A stretch of 12,209 bases of DNA, from IMG/VR virus record IMGVR_UViG_2531839468_000024, one strand, 5' to 3'. The notes under the pieces are model-generated. The model ran no database searches and was not told the origin of the DNA. It saw nothing but the letters and a program-made list of their open reading frames with translations. Source of the DNA: a virus (Duplodnaviria > Heunggongvirae > Uroviricota > Caudoviricetes). A program made the position numbers and the translations under genes. Of this stretch, positions 1 through 12,209 are shown in pieces (the first letter of the stretch is position 1; each line of letters begins with the position of its first letter).

Positions 1-219
1 TGTTAATCCTACAATACCAAATAATGATAATACACCAATGACACTGACCGCGCCAAAGTATTTAAAGAAAATAGTTAATGATTCAACACTTATACCTTTC
101 CAATTTAAATAGCTTCTATAAGTATACAATTGCACAAAACACATGATAAAGAATAGGGGAAGGTATGACACTATAAATAGCGAAACTCTAGCACCTAAAT
201 GTAGTTTATTTACTCTCAT
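1..219 (-). CDS. Partial ORF (N-terminal fragment, continues past window start) encoding a strongly hydrophobic peptide; possible membrane protein
   Basis: Minus-strand frame open from ATG (reverse complement of 217-219) to position 1 with no stop; translation MRVNKLHLGARVSLFIVSYLPLFFIMCFVQLYTYRSYLNWKGISVESLTIFFKYFGAVSVIGVLSLFGIVGLT is hydrophobic; region is AT-rich. Not in the ORF track because it is unterminated in the window. Confidence 0.2.
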   Translation of the reverse strand, partial: MRVNKLHLGARVSLFIVSYLPLFFIMCFVQLYTYRSYLNWKGISVESLTIFFKYFGAVSVIGVLSLFGIVGLT

Positions 220-427
220 AACTACCCCACAGCCTACACGTCTAGTATTTTATGTTATTTCGAATAATTATGCATCAGATTACCATCCTACAATTGTGCA
301 TAAAACGAGCATTTTGCTGATTTTTCTGCGGATGCCTGAGACAGACAACCTCAAGCACCCGCAGCAATTTTACTTAACTCCCGCTACCTCGCCAATATGA
401 AATCAATAAGAAAGGTGCTCCATAAAA

Positions 428-1114
428 TCACTCCTTCTCTTCTTTATCGTAGTGGAGTTGACCAATTTTGATAAGAGGGCGTCCCTGAGATTTGCGGTGT
501 AGATTGGTATCGCGCAGAGAATACACACAGCCACAATATTCCTGCTGATAGAATTTTTCGCGCTTGCTGATTTCAATCATGCGGGACGAGCCGCCCTGCT
601 TGCGCCAGTTATAATCCCAGTACACCATGCCCGGATAATGCGCGACGGCTCGCCGCCCACAGTCGTTAACCTGCTGCATATTTTTCCAGCGTGAAATGCC
701 CAGTGAACTGCTGATCACACTGAAACCATTTTCAGCAGCGTACAGCGCTGTCCGCTCAAAACGCATGTCAAAACACATGGTACAACGGATCCCCCTCTCG
801 GGCTCCCATTCCATTCCTTTGGCACGTTCAAACCAGTTGTCTGTGTCGTAATCAGCATCAATAAATGGCACGCCGTGTTGTTCAGCAAAGCGAATATTCT
901 CATCCTTACGAATTAAATACTCTTTCTGAGGATGAATGTTCGGGTTGTAGAAAAAGATGGTATAGTCGATTCCCGAGGCCTGAAGCGCCTCCATCACTTC
1001 ACCGGAACATGGAGCACAGCAAGAGTGCAGTAGTAGTTTGTTTGCCCCGTTTGGGAGCTCCAATTTAGGCCGTTTGAAATCAGCAATAGTCATAAATATT
1101 TTTATTGGGGTCAT
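428..1114 (-). CDS. queH: DUF208 / QueH-like epoxyqueuosine reductase (Fe-S enzyme of queuosine tRNA modification)
   Basis: 228-aa ORF with [11 protein letters not shown] motif near the N-terminus plus later cysteines ([14 protein letters not shown]), as I recall for the QueH/DUF208 family. No clear Shine-Dalgarno for either candidate ATG (1114 or 1093). Confidence 0.55.
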
Positions 1115-1290
1115 GAAAATAGCACAGAGTGTAGCATCAGGGCTATCGGGAATAGATGTCTAAATCTGGTAATATCTGCTTTTGACGCAAAGCAGACAAC
1201 CACGCTAGCTCAATCCTGTGCCGTGAAAATGTCAATTCACATCTGAACTAATGCTCTTTAATCTAGTTACGTCTATAAATAACGAAAATT

Positions 1291-1689
1291 TCACTGATAA
1301 AATGCCAGTATGCGCTGCATAACTTCGCTCTTCCGGCACTCACAGCAAATTATGTTTTGGTGCCTGTCATAACGACGTATTTCTCCGTCAGGTAATGACC
1401 AGATAAGGTCCGGATCAACCACAGATGTTTTCTTCACCTTTGCCCTCGAGAGTTTTTTGCGGGCGTTTTGCCAGTCCTTACGAGCCTGTTCAGACGGGAA
1501 TAACCCGTAGCCAGAGTTATATACATCACCACTGGCAACCAGCTCTCTGGCGAGAACGCTCATCAGATATCTTGTCGCACCTGTCTTGGCTTCCAGTTGC
1601 CGTAACGTCTCGCGCCCACTCCGGCGTACTAGCTCAACAACCTGCCCCTTGATTTTTTCCCGCTCTTCTTGTGTAAAAACTTTTGCCAC
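1291..1689 (-). CDS. Hypothetical 132-aa protein downstream of the O-like replication gene
   Basis: GTG start preceded by a strong SD (AAGGGGGAC, reverse complement of 1692-1700); 40 bp downstream of the O-like stop, same strand. No family recognised. Confidence 0.5.
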   Translation of the reverse strand: MAKVFTQEEREKIKGQVVELVRRSGRETLRQLEAKTGATRYLMSVLARELVASGDVYNSGYGLFPSEQARKDWQNARKKLSRAKVKKTSVVDPDLIWSLPDGEIRRYDRHQNIICCECRKSEVMQRILAFYQ

Positions 1690-4696: not shown

Positions 4697-4754
4697 TTTC
4701 TGGTGACGTTTGGCGGTATCAGTTTTACTCCGTGACTGCTCTGCCGCCGTTTTT
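4697..4754 (+). ncRNA. dicF: DicF-like small regulatory RNA (ftsZ-targeting sRNA of dicB operons)
   Basis: TTTCTGGTGACGTTTGGCGGTATCAGTTTTACTCCGTGACTGCTCTGCCGCCG followed by a T-run (4750-4754); this matches DicF as I recall it, and it sits in a roughly 300-bp non-coding gap just upstream of the DicB-like ORF. No covariance-model search was possible. Confidence 0.65.
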
Positions 4755-5393: not shown

Positions 5394-7864
5394 ATGAGTA
5401 AAGTCTTTATTTGCGCCGCTATTCCTGACGAACTGGCAACAAGGGAAGAAGGCGCTGTGGCTGTAGCCACAGCCATTGAAGCTGGCGACGAACGCCGTGC
5501 TCGAGCAAAATTTCACTGGCAGTTCCTGGAACATTATCCGGCTGCTCAGGACTGCGCTTATAAATTTATTGTCTGCGAGGATAAACCTGGCATACCCCGC
5601 CCTGCCCTCGATTCATGGGATGCTGAATATATGCAGGAAAACCGCTGGGATGAGGAGTCTGCTTCTTTTGTCCCGGTTGAGACTGAATCCGATCCGATGA
5701 ACGTCACTTTTGACAAGCTGGCCCCTGAAGTACAGAACGCTGTCATGGTTAAGTTCGACACATGTGAAAACATCACCGTTGATATGGTTATTAGCGCACA
5801 GGAATTGTTGCAGGAAGACATGGCAACATTCGACGGACATATCGTTGAAGCGTTGATGAAAATGCCAGAAGTTAACGCCATGTATCCGGAGCTTAAGTTG
5901 CACGCCATTGGGTGGGTTAAGCATAAATGTATTCCTGGTGCTAAATGGCCCGAAATTCAGGCAGAGATGCGCATCTGGAAAAAACGTCGCGAAGGTGAAC
6001 GCAAGGAAACCGGAAAATACACGTCTGTTGTTGATCTCGCCCGCGCCAGAGCCAATCAACAGTACACTGAAAATTCAACAGGAAAAATCAGCCCGGTCAT
6101 TGCTGCCATTCATCGCGAATACAAGCAGACATGGAAAACACTGGATGACGAACTGGCCTACGCTCTCTGGCCTGGTGATGTGGATGCCGGAAACATTGAC
6201 GGCAGCATCCATCGCTGGGCAAAAAAGAAGTTATCGACAACGACCGCGAAGACTGGAAGCGTATCTCGGCATCAATGCGCAAACAGCCTGATGCCCTTCG
6301 CTACGACCGCCAGACTATTTTTGGCCTTGTCCGTGAGCGTCCGATCGACATTCACAAAGATCCCATAGCACTGAACAAATATATCTGCGAATACCTGACG
6401 ACAAAGGGCGTGTTTGAGAGTGAAGAAACAGACCTGGGCACTGTTGATGTTCTCCAGTCATCAGAAACACAAACTGATGCAGTGGAAACTGAGGTATCTG
6501 ATATCCCAAAAAATGAAACCGCGCCGGAAGCTGAACCATCTGTAGAGCGTGAGGGGCCGTTCTATTTCCTCTTCGCAGATAAGGACGGAGAAAAATACGG
6601 TCGCGCAAACAAACTTTCTGGTCTGGATAAGGCACTGGCTGCTGGCGCCACTGAAATCACAAAAGAAGAATATTTTGCCCGAAAAAATGGCACATACACG
6701 GGCTTACCGCAAAATGTAGATACCGCTGAAGATTCAGAACAACCAGAGCCGATAAAAGTTACCGCTGACGAAGTAAACAAAATTATGCAGGCAGCCAATA
6801 TCAGCCAGCCTGACGCCGATAAGTTGCTTGCTGCATCACGTGGTGAATTTGTTGAAGGGATTAGTGACCCGAATGATCCGAAATGGGTTAAGGGGATCCA
6901 GACCCGCGATTCTGTGAACCAGAACCAGCATGAATCGGAACGGAACTACCAAAAAGCGGAACAAAACAGCACAAATGCGTTACAAAACGAGCCAGAAACG
7001 AAACAGCCTGAACCAGTGGCGCAACAGGAAGTGGAAAAAGTCTGCACCGCCTGCGGTCAGACCGGCGGCGGCAACTGCCCTGATTGTGGCGCGGTGATGG
7101 GCGACGCAACATACCAAGAAACATTCGATGAAGAGTATCAGGTTGAAGTTCAGGAAGATGATCCGGAGGAAATGGAAGGCGCTGAACATCCACACAAGGA
7201 GAACACTGGCGGCAATCAGCATCACAATAGCGATAATGAAACTGGCGAGACGGCAGATCACTCAATTAAGGTGAACGGTCATCACGAAATCACATCCACC
7301 AGCAGGACGTGTGACCATCTAATGATCGACCTTGAAACCATGGGAAAAAATCCTGATGCCCCGATCATCTCAATAGGTGCAATATTTTTCGATCCGCAAA
7401 CCGGAGATATGGGACCGGAATTTAGTAAGACTATCGATCTGGAAACTGCTGGCGGAGTCATTGATCGGGACACCATTAAATGGTGGCTTAAGCAATCACG
7501 CGAAGCGCAATCTGCCATTATGACCGATGAAATCCCGTTAGATGATGCACTGTTACAATTGCGGGAATTTATCGACGAAAACTCCGGTGAATTTTTTGTT
7601 CAGGTTTGGGGAAATGGAGCCAACTTCGACAACACGATTTTGCGCCGTTCATACGAACGGCAGGGGATCCCCTGCCCGTGGCGTTACTACAACGATCGCG
7701 ATGTACGCACAATCGTTGAGCTGGGGAAAGCCATAGACTTCGATGCCAGAACGGCTATTCCATTCGAAGGTGAGCGCCATAATGCACTTGATGACGCCCG
7801 TTACCAGGCAAAATACGTTTCAGTTATCTGGCAAAAACTGATCCCGAGTCAGGCTGATTCTTAA
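5394..7864 (+). pseudogene. YdfE-like large early protein (about 820 aa if fused): unknown N-terminal region, acidic linker, C4 zinc-ribbon-like motif and C-terminal DEDDh (DnaQ-like) 3'-5' exonuclease domain; reading frame broken near 6221-6227
   Basis: Two overlapping ORFs (5394-6368 and 6275-7864); the second frame is open from 6200, and one added base in the A6 run (6221-6226) joins them. Exo motifs: DLET (about 7327-7338), NGANFDNTIL, HNALDDARYQAKY. CTACGQTGGGNCPDCG at about 7045-7092. Confidence 0.65.
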
Positions 7865-8065: not shown

Positions 8066-8148
8066 GTAACCGGCTCATTTAAACCGTCTGGTCTGTTTCC
8101 TCCGGCTCTACAAAAATAATGTCCATCATTTTTAATGGACACTATCGT

Positions 8149-8331
8149 ATGAAACACCGGACCTGGATCACTGAAGCTTTACGTCTTCACTTTGAAGAAC
8201 ATTTACCCCGGGTTGTGGCCGGGCGTCGCCTGAGTGTACCAAAATCAACAGTTTGTAGTATGTTCGTGCGCTTTCGGAGAGCTGGCCTTTCGGTGGCCTT
8301 TGCCCGCAGGCATGTCGGAGCAGGAACTTGA
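8149..8331 (+). CDS. IS-internal upstream ORF of unknown role (HTH-like basic peptide)
   Basis: ATG at 8149 (the track begins at 8119); MKHRTWITEALRLHFEEHLPRVVAGRRLSVPKSTV...; its stop overlaps an ATG at 8331 (TGATG). May be an accessory ORF or chance ORF within the IS left arm. Confidence 0.25.
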   Translation: MKHRTWITEALRLHFEEHLPRVVAGRRLSVPKSTVCSMFVRFRRAGLSVAFARRHVGAGT

Positions 8332-8461
8332 TGCCTGCCTATACGGACAATTTTTCCACGGTACCAGTCGTACGTCCTGAAAGCACCGTTATATCCGAAG
8401 CCCCCGAGGTAAAAAACGTCCCCGGCGGCCCAACTTCCCTTATGAGTTTAAAATCGCCTTA

Positions 8462-8797
8462 GTGGAGCAGTCACTACAGCCCGGAGCCTGTGTGGCGCAG
8501 ATCGCCCGGGAAAACGGAATCAACGATAACCTGCTCTTCAACTGGCGCCATCAATACCGGAAAGGTGGCCTGCTGCCTTCCGGAGAAAATATGCCGGCAC
8601 TGCTTCCCGTGACGTTAACGCCGGAGCCGGATAATAAAATCCCGGCCCCCGCACAGGAACCAGAGCAGATAAATACACCGTCCGACAGTCTGTGTTGTGA
8701 GCTGGTTCTGCCGGCCGGAACTCTCAGGCTTAAAGGTAAACTGACGCCGGCGTTATTACAGACACTTATCCGCGAAATAAAAGGGAGCAGCCACTGA
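8462..8797 (+). CDS. tnpA: IS66-family TnpA (orf1); conserved coding appears to extend upstream of the first in-frame start
   Basis: The first standard start in frame is GTG at 8462, but the same frame is open from 8381 and encodes KKRPRRPNFPYEFKIALVEQSLQPGACVAQIARENGINDNLLFNWRHQYRKG, matching the RRR-x-S-x-EFK...LF-WR-Q pattern I recall for IS66 TnpA. Confidence 0.6.
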   Translation: MEQSLQPGACVAQIARENGINDNLLFNWRHQYRKGGLLPSGENMPALLPVTLTPEPDNKIPAPAQEPEQINTPSDSLCCELVLPAGTLRLKGKLTPALLQTLIREIKGSSH

Positions 8798-9144
8798 TGA
8801 TATCTCTCCCTGCAGGTTCGCGTATCTGGCTGGTTGCAGGTATCACCGATATGCGAAATGGCTTTAACGGCCTGGCATCAAAAGTTCAGAACGTCCTGAA
8901 GGATGACCCGTTCTCCGGACACCTGTTCATCTTCCGCGGACGCCGGGGTGACCAGATAAAAGTGTTGTGGGCTGACAGTGACGGACTGTGCCTCTTCACC
9001 AAACGCCTGGAGCGGGGCCGCTTCGTCTGGCCAGTCACCCGTGACGGCAAGGTGCACCTTACTCCGGCTCAGTTATCCATGCTTCTTGAAGGTATCAACT
9101 GGAAGCACCCGAAACGAACGGAACGCGCTGGAATCCGCATATAA
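8797..9144 (+). CDS. tnpB: IS66-family TnpB (orf2)
   Basis: 115 aa, MISLPAGSRIWLVAGITDMRNGFNGLA...GHLFIFRGRRGDQIKVLWADSDGLCLFTKRLERGRF, the characteristic IS66 orf2 sequence; start overlaps the tnpA stop. Confidence 0.85.
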   Translation: MISLPAGSRIWLVAGITDMRNGFNGLASKVQNVLKDDPFSGHLFIFRGRRGDQIKVLWADSDGLCLFTKRLERGRFVWPVTRDGKVHLTPAQLSMLLEGINWKHPKRTERAGIRI

Positions 9145-9163
9145 CCCGTTGTAAAGTGAGGAT

Positions 9164-10734
9164 ATGGACACCTCACTTGCTCATGAGAACGCCCGCCTGC
9201 GGGCACTGTTGCAGACGCAACAGGACACCATCCGCCAGATGGCTGAATACAACCGCCTGCTCTCACAGCGGGTGGCGGCTTATGCTTCCGAAATCAACCG
9301 GCTGAAGGCGCTGGTTGCGAAACTGCAACGTATGCAGTTCGGTAAAAGCTCAGAAAAACTTCGTGCAAAAACCGAACGGCAGATACAGGAAGCACAGGAG
9401 CGAATCAGCGCACTTCAGGAAGAAATGGCGGAAACGCTGGGTGAGCAATATGACCCGGTACTGCCATCCGCCCTGCGCCAGTCTTCAGCCCGTAAACCGT
9501 TACCGGCCTCACTTCCCCGTGAAACCCGGGTTATCCGGCCGGAAGAGGAATGCTGTCCTGCCTGTGGTGGTGAACTCAGTTCTCTGGGATGTGATGTGTC
9601 AGAGCAACTGGAGCTTATCAGCAGCGCCTTTAAGGTTATCGAAACACAACGTCCGAAACAGGCCTGTTGCCGGTGCGACCATATCGTGCAGGCACCAGTA
9701 CCTTCAAAACCCATTGCACGCAGTTATGCCGGAGCGGGGCTTCTGGCCCATGTTGTCACCGGGAAATATGCAGACCATCTGCCGTTATACCGCCAGTCAG
9801 AAATATACCGTCGTCAGGGAGTGGAGCTGAGCCGTGCCACACTGGGGCGCTGGACAGGTGCTGTTGCTGAACTGCTGGAGCCGCTGTATGACGTCCTGCG
9901 CCAGTATGTGCTGATGCCCGGTAAAGTCCATGCTGATGATATCCCCGTCCCGGTCCAGGAGCCGGGCAGCGGTAAAACCCGGACAGCCCGGCTGTGGGTC
10001 TACGTCCGTGATGACCGTAACGCCGGTTCACAGATGCCCCCGGCGGTCTGGTTCGCGTACAGTCCGGACCGGAAAGGTATCCATCCACAAAATCACCTGG
10101 CCGGTTACAGCGGTGTGCTTCAGGCCGATGCTTACGGTGGTTACCGGGCGTTATACGAATCCGGCAGAATAACGGAAGCCGCGTGTATGGCTCATGCCCG
10201 GAGAAAATCCACGATGTGCATGCAAGAGCGCCCACCTACATCACCACGGAAGCCCTGCAGCGTATCGGTGAACTGTATGCCATCGAGGCAGAGGTCCGGG
10301 GCTGTTCAGCAGAACAGCGTCTGGCGGCAAGAAAAGCCAGAGCCGCGCCACTGATGCAGTCACTGTATGACTGGATACAGCAACAGATGAAAACACTGTC
10401 GCGTCACTCAGATACGGCAAAAGCGTTCGCATACCTGCTGAAACAGTGGGATGCACTGAACGTGTACTGCAGTAATGGCTGGGTGGAAATCGACAACAAC
10501 ATCGCAGAGAACGCCTTACGGGGAGTGGCCGTAGGCCGGAAAAACTGGATGTTCGCGGGTTCCGACAGCGGTGGTGAACATGCGGCGGTGTTGTACTCGC
10601 TGATCGGCACATGCCGTCTGAACAATGTGGAGCCAGAAAAGTGGCTGCGTTACGTCATTGAACATATCCAGGACTGGCCGGCAAACCGGGTACGCGATCT
10701 GTTGCCCTGGAAAGTTGATCTGAGCTCTCAGTAA
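9164..10734 (+). pseudogene. tnpC: IS66-family TnpC transposase, frameshifted (two ORFs, 9164-10354 and 10183-10734)
   Basis: N-terminal coiled-coil/leucine-zipper-like region, CPACGG zinc-finger motif, then ...[11 protein letters not shown] in one frame continuing as IHDVHA... in the next; one added base near 10208 would restore a single reading frame of about 520 aa. Confidence 0.8.
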
Positions 10735-10764
10735 ATATCAATACGGTTCTGACGAGTCGCTTAC

Positions 10765-10895: not shown

Positions 10896-10929
10896 CTAAA
10901 AGCCACACTAACTAATGAGAGAAGTTGAA

Positions 10930-12209
10930 ATGAAATATCCGACAGGCGTGGAAAACCATGGAGGGAAATTACGTATCTGGTTTGTTTATAAAGGCGTAAG
11001 AGTCAGGGAAAATCTGGGGGTTCCTGACACAGCAAAAAACAGGCACGTTGCAGGTGAACTACGCTCCTCTGTTTGTTACGCAATAAAAACTGGTGTTTTC
11101 GACTATGCAAAACAGTTTCCCTCCTCACGCAATCTGGAAAAATTTGGTGAGGCCCGACAAGATTTAACCATAAAAGAACTGGCTGAAAAATTTCTGGCAC
11201 TGAAAGAAACTGAAGTCGCCAAAACATCACTCAACACATACCGTGCCGTCATCAAAAATATCCTGAGCATAATCGGTGAAAAAAATCTTGCCTCATCGAT
11301 TAATAAAGAAAAATTACTGGAGGTTCGTAAAGAGCTACTGACTGGATACCAGATCCCCAAAAGTAACTATATTGTTACACAACCAGGGAGATCGGCTGTA
11401 ACTGTAAATAATTACATGACAAATCTTAACGCCGTGTTCCAGTTTGGTGTTGATAACGGTTACCTGCCAGATAATCCGTTTAAGGGGATCTCGCCATTAA
11501 AGGAATCAAGAACCATTCCGGATCCTCTTTCGCGGGAGGAATTTATCCGTCTTATCGATGCGTGCAGAAATCAGCAAGCAAAAAATATATGGTGTGTTTC
11601 TGTTTATACTGGCGTTCGCCCTGGTGAGCTGTGTGCACTTGGATGGGAGGACATAGATCTGAAAAATGGAACAATGATGATCAGGAGAAATTTAGCAAAA
11701 GACCGTTTCACGGTACCAAAAACACAGGCGGGAACCAATCGGGTCATTCATCTTATTAAGCCAGCAATCGACGCTCTCCGGAGTCAGATGACATTAACGA
11801 GACTGAGCAAAGAGCATATCATTGATGTTCACCTCAGAGAGTATGGCAGAACAGAAAAACAAAAATGCACCTTTGTTTTTCAACCTGAAGTGTCAGCGAG
11901 AGTAAAAATTATGGTGACCATTTTACCGTTGACTCAATAAGGCAGATGTGGGACGCAGCGATAAAACGTGCCGGACTCCGCCATCGAAAATCATATCAGT
12001 CGAGACATACTTATGCCTGCTGGTCGCTGACAGCTGGTGCTAACCCGGCATTTATAGCAAACCAGATGGGCCATGCAGATGCGCAAATGGTATTTCAGGT
12101 ATACGGAAAATGGATGTCTGAAAACAATAATGCACAGGTAGCTTTGTTAAATACACAGTTAAGCGAGTTTGCCCCAACCATGCCCCATAACGAAGCAATG
12201 AAAAATTAA
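10930..12209 (+). pseudogene. int: Lambda-family tyrosine integrase, frame broken at an A5 run (11904-11908)
   Basis: Two ORFs (10915-11940 and 11946-12209); the downstream frame is open from 11889 and carries the catalytic HxxR (SRHTYA), second His (GHAD) and Tyr (VYGKW) region; the N-terminus PTGVE...LRIWFVYKGVRVRE is typical of lambdoid integrases. Confidence 0.8.

Follow-up and report, generated by a model that had tools for sequence, protein, structure and literature searches.

An intact queH gene inside a Qin-type lambdoid prophage of Escherichia coli: a probable moron making the last step of queuosine synthesis independent of cobalamin

The stretch of viral DNA analysed here (12,209 nucleotides, IMG/VR record IMGVR_UViG_2531839468_000024; hereafter the window) carries on its minus strand an uninterrupted open reading frame at positions 428..1114, whose longest version starts at an ATG at position 1114 and encodes 228 aa (an 11-residue peptide, not reproduced here, was located within this minus-strand product). 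A reading of the window from its letters alone, below called the sequence-only reading, had assigned this gene, without giving its strand, to the QueH (DUF208) family. This assignment was borne out by a profile search, in which the protein matched Pfam family PF02677 (QueH, formerly DUF208) with E=1.9e-65 and 220.6 bits, the gathering cut-off being 23.5. The match covers positions 1-174 of the 175 positions of the profile and is hence a full-length family match. In every genome inspected the RefSeq name of the gene is 'epoxyqueuosine reductase QueH'; the version annotated by RefSeq is 666 nt long. A search of NCBIfam with the QueH protein returned no family at E<=0.01; since RefSeq names the protein QueH, this miss reflects the model library rather than the protein. 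The intact ORF thus encodes a full-length member of the QueH family.

The true start of the gene is probably the ATG at position 1093 rather than that at 1114, because the 666-nt RefSeq version begins there, because the homologues start at about this place, and because the sequence of 1094-1114 drifts non-synonymously. In the homologue alignment, the chromosomal proteins start within 1-2 residues of the methionine encoded by ATG 1093. The window and REL606 alleles differ at four of six residues in the 1094..1114 stretch, and in an alignment of seven prophage variants nearly all changes in the 18 nt between the two ATGs are non-synonymous, in contrast to a dN/dS of ~0.05-0.1 over the rest of the gene. 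The peptide encoded by the seven codons from ATG 1114 to ATG 1093 differs between the prophage alleles, one of its forms being MTSINIF. No Shine-Dalgarno sequence was found before ATG 1114 or before ATG 1093. We therefore place the queH CDS at 428..1093 (minus strand, 221 aa), with limits as in RefSeq; this is the protein to which the Pfam match, the match to PDB entry 7lc5, the seven invariant cysteines and the AlphaFold model described below apply. The upstream in-frame ATG and the six codons that follow it (1094..1114, minus strand) are probably 5′ leader and not coding.

When PDB sequences were searched with phmmer, only entries of Thermotoga maritima QueH were matched (7LC5 and its relatives, E=5e-22), to which the identity of the phage-borne protein is only ~30%. 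Three sets of cysteines, namely CC (C9 and C10), CxxC and CGC, align between the protein and T. maritima QueH. In the 221-aa numbering, residues C25, C26, C29, C104, C107, C187 and C189 are invariant in 29 Enterobacterales homologues, so that both the CCAPC motif and the additional cysteines to which the sequence-only reading had pointed hold up. The set of conserved cysteines expected for a [4Fe-4S] cluster with an adjacent iron (CCxP[C/D], CxxC and CGC) is accordingly present in the alignment. The phage-borne protein has CCAPC where T. maritima QueH has CCAPD; the position of Asp13 of the latter, which is mutated to Asn in PDB 9DCO, is taken by a Cys that is the norm among the homologues of the phage-borne protein. 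We take Asp13 of T. maritima QueH to be a ligand of the extra iron. Similarly, we assume that the cysteines are ligands, in keeping with the PDB entries of the C9S and D13N mutants. In Rac-type alleles a cysteine that is not among the ligands (in the sequence NDCG) is replaced by Ser, but the seven candidate ligand cysteines never vary.

An AlphaFold2 model built with the 29 homologues as input had a pLDDT of 79 and a pTM of 0.79. When it was compared with the PDB using Foldseek, the five best matches were all QueH crystal entries (E=6e-11 to 3e-9, target-normalised TM 0.78-0.80), and folds of the PP-loop or adenine-nucleotide-hydrolase type ranked far below them. The predicted fold is thus best fitted by the Thermotoga QueH crystal structures (7LC5/7LC7/9DEU), with which the protein shares family, fold and the aligned CC, CxxC and CGC cysteines. 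Apart from the differences mentioned above, the basic C-terminal tail is longer in the phage-borne QueH, and the gene is chromosomal in T. maritima whereas the present one is phage-borne.

The first 1300 bases of the window are 100% identical to E. coli strain A1. Comparison with A1 and with the closest full-length relatives identifies the window as the left-hand early region of a Qin-type lambdoid prophage located beside rspB. On the plus strand the order is kwaB, kwaA – queH – DUF977 – O-like replication gene – ydaT/cII-like – cro, followed by cI-like – DicF – dicB – ydfD – exonuclease – xis – [ISCro1] – int – rspB. The genes cro, the replication genes, DUF977 and queH all lie on one strand, which is that of the early-right operon, and further to the left of queH the closest relatives have hokD, DUF968 and the Q antiterminator. 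This arrangement puts queH inside the prophage, at the position of the ren/nin region of lambda. The sequence-only reading had placed the gene directly beside a prophage remnant. This was wrong: queH sits between the DUF977/Ren-like gene on one side and hok/DUF968/RusA/Q on the other.

The DUF977-queH-hok/Q arrangement is common to strain A1, O104:H4, REL606, E10, M114 and phage HannyBb. In the O104:H4 outbreak strain the queH prophage is integrated at ompW; in strains E10 and M114 queH is present in Rac-type prophages next to trkG, and in E. coli B REL606 it is in the Qin prophage. Shigella flexneri and E. albertii have the same queH prophage arrangement. The isolated Escherichia phage HannyBb (45 kb) also carries queH, annotated there as hypothetical, and the gene is present on 187 IMG/VR viral contigs. 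A comparison of 88 copies revealed a common architecture on one strand: one of three unrelated replication modules, DUF977, queH, a variable slot, DUF968, RusA and Q. The DUF977/Ren-like gene (1291..1689, minus strand; 'DUF977 family protein' in RefSeq, and PHROG 142, 'Ren-like exclusion protein', with E=4e-44) is the constant upstream partner of prophage queH, being at most two ORFs upstream in 84/88 prophage copies and immediately upstream in 76/88. The slot between queH and DUF968 is occupied by hok/mok in 54 of the 88 copies, by a Dcm-like methyltransferase in 16/88 and by Kiwa in ~8/88. Where queH is missing from related prophages, its place is taken either by genes for an Stk-type kinase and a PP2C phosphatase or by genes for an AAA ATPase and an HNH endonuclease. 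The queH gene hence lies between conserved phage modules and its presence or absence is polymorphic among related phages, which is the location expected of a moron. The mobile cassette measures ~0.8-0.9 kb and includes, besides the gene, ~80 nt before ATG 1093 and ~95 nt after the stop codon.

More generally, the DUF977-hok interval is a hot spot for cargo, holding kinase/phosphatase genes, ATPase/HNH genes together with DUF5677, a gene for a 374-aa Dcm-like cytosine methyltransferase, Kiwa, or queH; examples include the prophages FORC 064 (L168), L169 (2000-3039) and L146/L164.

The left end of the window (1..219, minus strand, continuing left of it) contains the 5′ part of kwaA of a Kiwa system, a two-gene anti-phage defence system, which lies downstream of queH as a neighbour outside its function. 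In the nearest genome (L004, 10580-12219) KwaA and KwaB are full length and were recognised by PADLOC with E=1e-101 and E=3e-159, respectively. With a GC content of 30-33%, versus ~48% for queH and the prophage, Kiwa is the only part of anomalous composition. The sequence-only reading had considered queH to be cargo brought in by the prophage or by the island to its left. The prophage part of this proposal stands, but the island part does not: Kiwa is that island, and it was inserted downstream of queH and did not bring queH. Kiwa was apparently inserted in the leader of a hok/sok locus, and a truncated ISNCY transposase follows it. The downstream edge of the queH cassette is formed by a hok/sok-type leader remnant (326..382, minus strand) with a strong hairpin at 326-364, which belongs to a fold of -40.5 kcal/mol with z=-3.1. 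Within the remnant, positions 332-382 are homologous to the sequence that precedes hokD in prophages without queH. The 326-382 region thus resembles what is left of the 5′ part of a hok/sok module severed by the Kiwa insertion; Rfam gave no sok match at gathering score there.

Other elements of the window are as follows. In keeping with the Qin type of the prophage, the antisense sRNA DicF is encoded at 4698-4749 (plus strand; full-length match to RF00039 with 72.5 bits), ahead of dicB and ydfD. The excisionase and integrase genes are separated by an ISCro1 element of the IS66 family (tnpA, tnpB, transposase) at 8066-10764, which strain A1 lacks; the insertion is accompanied by an 8-bp alignment overlap, as expected for a target-site duplication, and the transposase frame of the element is split (9164-10354 / 10183-10734), with four gaps relative to the copy in strain Survcare321. 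The 2472-nt exonuclease gene (5394-7864) and the integrase gene (10915-12209) are each divided into two ORFs by a single-base indel relative to A1. Such indels may mean that a defective prophage is truly decaying, or they may stem from sequencing errors in homopolymers. The regions of the broken genes are otherwise 99.9% identical to A1, and queH itself is 100% identical.

In positions 1-1800, consensus scans detected neither a sigma-70 promoter in the DUF977-queH interval of the queH strand nor any terminator. Alignments of the loci, by contrast with the consensus scan, brought to light a promoter-like motif of the extended -10 type, TGcTACACT, at 1128..1136 (minus strand), 43 nt upstream of ATG 1093. 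It belongs to a stretch of ~80 nt preceding ATG 1093 that is conserved throughout the prophage variants, and it is unchanged in seven prophage variants whose sequences further upstream are unrelated. The same motif, TGCTACA(C/A)T, precedes chromosomal queH, at a distance from the start codon of 42-44 nt in Enterobacter, Kluyvera and Scandinavium and of 40 nt in one Erwinia; in other Erwinia there is a TACACT with GTGACA ahead of it at promoter spacing. A pattern of the extended -10 type was present in the interval from -62 to -25 at 25 of 80 loci, compared with a mean of 3.4 and a maximum of 9 for shuffled sequences. From these alignments we infer that the 1128-1136 motif is a native extended -10 promoter that was captured together with the gene. 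In the window allele, 5 nt are deleted just ahead of the TG of the motif, a place where a promoter of the extended -10 type should tolerate a deletion.

Between the DUF977 gene and the queH cassette there is a hairpin (1167..1202, minus strand) with a predicted stability of -16.5 kcal/mol and z=-3.65; none of 200 shuffled sequences was as stable. The Shigella-type variant has a different, G+C-rich hairpin at the same place. Because neither hairpin is followed by a U-tract, a role of the 1167-1202 hairpin as terminator is uncertain. The combination of hairpin, promoter-like motif and gene fits the pattern of a moron, short of proof. An Rfam scan detected no preQ1 or cobalamin riboswitch; DicF was the only match.

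Beyond Escherichia and Shigella, the proteins closest to the phage-borne one are encoded by chromosomal queH genes, with 88-91% identity in Enterobacter, Kluyvera and Scandinavium; identities of 78-86% were obtained for Erwinia, Pantoea, Serratia, Pectobacterium, Dickeya, Rahnella, Ewingella, Sodalis, Providencia, Proteus and Photorhabdus. The view that enterobacteria normally use QueG therefore applies to E. coli but not to the order, many members of which have a chromosomal queH with 78-91% identity, some of them in addition to queG. Both enzymes are on record for Pantoea endophytica, Pantoea sp. NPDC088449 and Enterobacter ludwigii. The DUF977 neighbour is absent at all these chromosomal queH loci. 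Instead, the flanks are ordinary genes that are syntenic within the genus or family, for example yciI and tonB on either side of queH in Serratia, dusC and a gene for a peptide-binding protein in Pectobacterium, and fixed blocks in Erwinia and Rahnella. Thus, the chromosomal and phage-borne proteins are near-identical, have the same length and contain the seven invariant cysteines, and the upstream TGCTACAyT motif is common to phage queH and its closest chromosomal relatives; the difference is that the chromosomal genes occupy genus-conserved non-phage neighbourhoods, whereas every Escherichia/Shigella copy examined for context sits in a lambdoid prophage. These comparisons suggest that phage queH was probably captured, with its own putative extended -10 promoter, from the chromosomal queH of a relative among the Enterobacteriaceae, and the chromosomal queH of Enterobacter, Kluyvera and Erwinia is the likely source lineage.

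Base composition was considered as evidence on the origin of the gene and set aside as uninformative. With a GC content of 48.3% and a GC3 of 53%, queH is indistinguishable from its prophage neighbours and from host genes; the comparison of composition proposed in the sequence-only reading consequently gave no foreign signal and no sign of a distant origin. In Serratia queH lies between yciI and tonB, and the queH prophage of O104:H4, integrated at ompW, is four genes from tonB. This proximity to tonB may be a coincidence or a hint to the site of capture.

At a coverage of at least 80% of its length, queH was present in 985/5426 complete E. coli genomes (~18%), and any part of it in 1047. These numbers, together with the prophage location in all contexts examined, confirm that the gene is accessory cargo and not a core gene of the species. 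A search with the K-12 queG gene as query found queG in all 5426 genomes at >=80% length and >=95% identity. The question whether the host also encodes queG is thereby answered at the species level, and it follows that every E. coli that carries queH also has QueG. Matches to queH on plasmids (62) are short and diverged; they were considered as a second system, but the one inspected was a 156-nt fragment next to a kinase fragment on an IS-rich plasmid, and we regard it as debris.

All 86 full-length prophage copies of queH that were retrieved are intact, and they comprise 21 nucleotide alleles and 10 protein alleles. Relative to the window allele, dN/dS is 0.03-0.12 where dS exceeds 0.05, and for the gene body it is ~0.05-0.1. 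The Rac-type alleles, at dS=0.40 and dN=0.023, give a ratio of 0.06. Prophage-resident queH is thus under strong purifying selection, also in prophages that look defective.

Reduction of epoxyqueuosine (oQ) to queuosine (Q) in tRNA, carried out by QueG or QueH, is the last step of the pathway and follows the steps of Tgt and QueA (PMC5372724; PMC9508795). QueG needs cobalamin for this reaction and QueH does not (PMC11906303; PMC5615194). Taken together, the results presented above make it probable that the gene encodes a functional QueH and is a moron of the lambdoid prophages of Escherichia and Shigella that makes the last step of Q synthesis cobalamin-independent. E. coli does not synthesise cobalamin de novo, and a cobamide is said, in the title of a 1988 paper by Frey et al. 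cited in PMC5372724, to be linked to oQ reduction in this bacterium. According to the proposed mechanism, the iron-sulfur enzyme QueH would act at position 34 of tRNA-Asp, -Asn, -His and -Tyr, where it would reduce oQ, with its epoxide, to Q, with its cyclopentene. Because QueG needs a cofactor that E. coli cannot make de novo, a lysogen with prophage QueH would complete Q whatever the supply of B12, as MetE backs up MetH. That the protein is an active enzyme is suggested by its 78-91% identity to chromosomal orthologues of a characterised family, and the promoter-like motif suggests that it would be expressed from its own promoter in the lysogen. The selective benefit of B12 independence is a conjecture, because we know of no established functional difference between oQ-tRNA and Q-tRNA, and because the gut contains corrinoids. 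A precedent for the coexistence of both enzymes is provided by S. aureus, which has QueH and QueG with different expression profiles, attributed to cofactor availability (PMC13443448).

Since the strand and position of queH are those of the early-right operon, and since no canonical promoter or terminator separates it from this operon in the consensus scans, the gene could instead be expressed by read-through from pR after induction and raise the Q content of host tRNA during phage protein synthesis. In line with this, a preprint reports that queG is induced in phage-infected Shewanella and that Q thereby increases at the cost of oQ, which implies that the oQ-to-Q step responds to infection. 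The extended -10 motif shared with the chromosomal copies, however, suggests autonomous transcription, and queH is intact in prophages that look defective, such as those of the window and the Qin prophage of REL606. Moreover, the fraction of NAU codons is 0.51 in phage late genes versus 0.54-0.63 in most sampled host genes. We consider a role as helper in the lytic phase unlikely, and the related idea that the phage needs Q for its own codons was dropped, the late genes having no NAU enrichment (0.51). The company that queH keeps could point to yet another role, in which a change at position 34 of the tRNA protects the lysogen or the phage from an anticodon-directed toxin or from a superinfecting phage: the slot next to queH also holds Kiwa, the Dcm-like methyltransferase, hok/sok, Stk plus PP2C and the AAA ATPase plus HNH genes, and the constant neighbour is annotated as a Ren-like exclusion protein. 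PADLOC, on the other hand, gave no defence-family match for either QueH or DUF977, the 78-91% identity to housekeeping chromosomal QueH gives no sign of neofunctionalisation, and we know of no toxin that tells oQ from Q. Such a function in conflicts is therefore very unlikely. Both the defence/exclusion slot beside a Ren-like protein and the preprint on the response of oQ-to-Q conversion to infection also underlie a broader proposal, namely that lambdoid phages use QueH to control the oQ-to-Q switch of host tRNA as a lever in conflict or host takeover; we regard this as quite unlikely. Were it true, about one in five E. coli strains would have a tRNA modification change imposed by a phage, and superinfection, sensitivity to toxins or the translation of NAU-rich genes would be affected.

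Phages use genes of the preQ0 pathway for modification of their DNA (PMC6884629), which raises the question whether the substrate of the prophage enzyme might be 7-deazaguanine-modified DNA or an epoxide other than that in tRNA. At the level of annotation, no DpdA/TGT-like protein, FolE, QueC, QueD or QueE is encoded by five prophages or by HannyBb, and PMC6884629 describes no oQ-type base as a modification of phage DNA; a substrate of this kind is extremely unlikely. The permanent redundancy of queH with queG would be in keeping with a captured host gene that hitch-hikes in the prophage with no selected function. Such neutrality is hardly credible given that the copies are intact without exception (86/86), that dN/dS stays at 0.04-0.12 up to dS=0.40, and that queH persists alongside three replication modules and at three or more integration sites. 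The reading of the gene as a cobalamin-independent QueH serving tRNA in the lysogen is thus the one we prefer.

The prophage enzyme resembles and differs from several known systems. E. coli QueG (b4166) catalyses the same reaction as QueH, oQ to Q in tRNA (PMC5372724), but has an unrelated fold (PF13484, PF08331), depends on cobalamin and is encoded by a core gene, none of which applies to prophage QueH. The 7-deazaguanine genes of phages (FolE, QueC/D/E, DpdA) are likewise queuosine/preQ0-pathway genes carried by phages; they form multi-gene sets acting on DNA, whereas prophage queH is a lone gene for the tRNA-specific last step. The nin/ren morons of lambdoid phages (hok/sok, the Stk kinase of Stx phages, Kiwa) occupy the same slot and show the same presence/absence polymorphism, but they act as toxin, exclusion or defence genes, whereas queH encodes a tRNA-modification enzyme of housekeeping type.

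A survey by Hutinet et al. in 2019 found no homologues of QueA, QueG or QueH in the viruses analysed (PMC6884629). This agrees with the statement in the sequence-only reading that a stand-alone queH is atypical of phage 7-deazaguanine gene sets, and the phage-borne queH described here contradicts the absence of QueH from viruses in that survey. The enzyme family and the RefSeq annotation are already known, and neither the enzyme nor its mechanism is new; it is the phage-borne status of queH that seems to have gone unremarked. We found no paper on queH as cargo of lambdoid prophages, which is weak evidence of absence as most subscription journals lay outside the search.

Provided that the enzyme works in lysogens, a prophage would enable about one in five E. 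coli strains to finish queuosine without vitamin B12. Carriers include the B lineage (REL606/BL21), O104:H4 and some O157:H7 and ST131 isolates, whereas K-12 is without queH and could not do so. In that case the strain difference would be relevant to studies of translation and to recombinant expression in minimal media, and a tRNA-specific queuosine enzyme would join the auxiliary genes of phages.

Two database records deserve mention. The phage family of QueH in PHROGs is phrog_3217 (E=8e-138), which is labelled 'unknown function'. Its profile starts at residue 34 and is consequently without the CCAPC motif, and this short profile suggests that starts were mis-called in the source phage genomes. 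A QueH with 78.5% identity, annotated as 'putative prophage protein', is present in records named 'Acinetobacter phage MD-2021a' (328-378 kb); both the length of these records and the degree of identity make them look like misassigned bacterial contigs.
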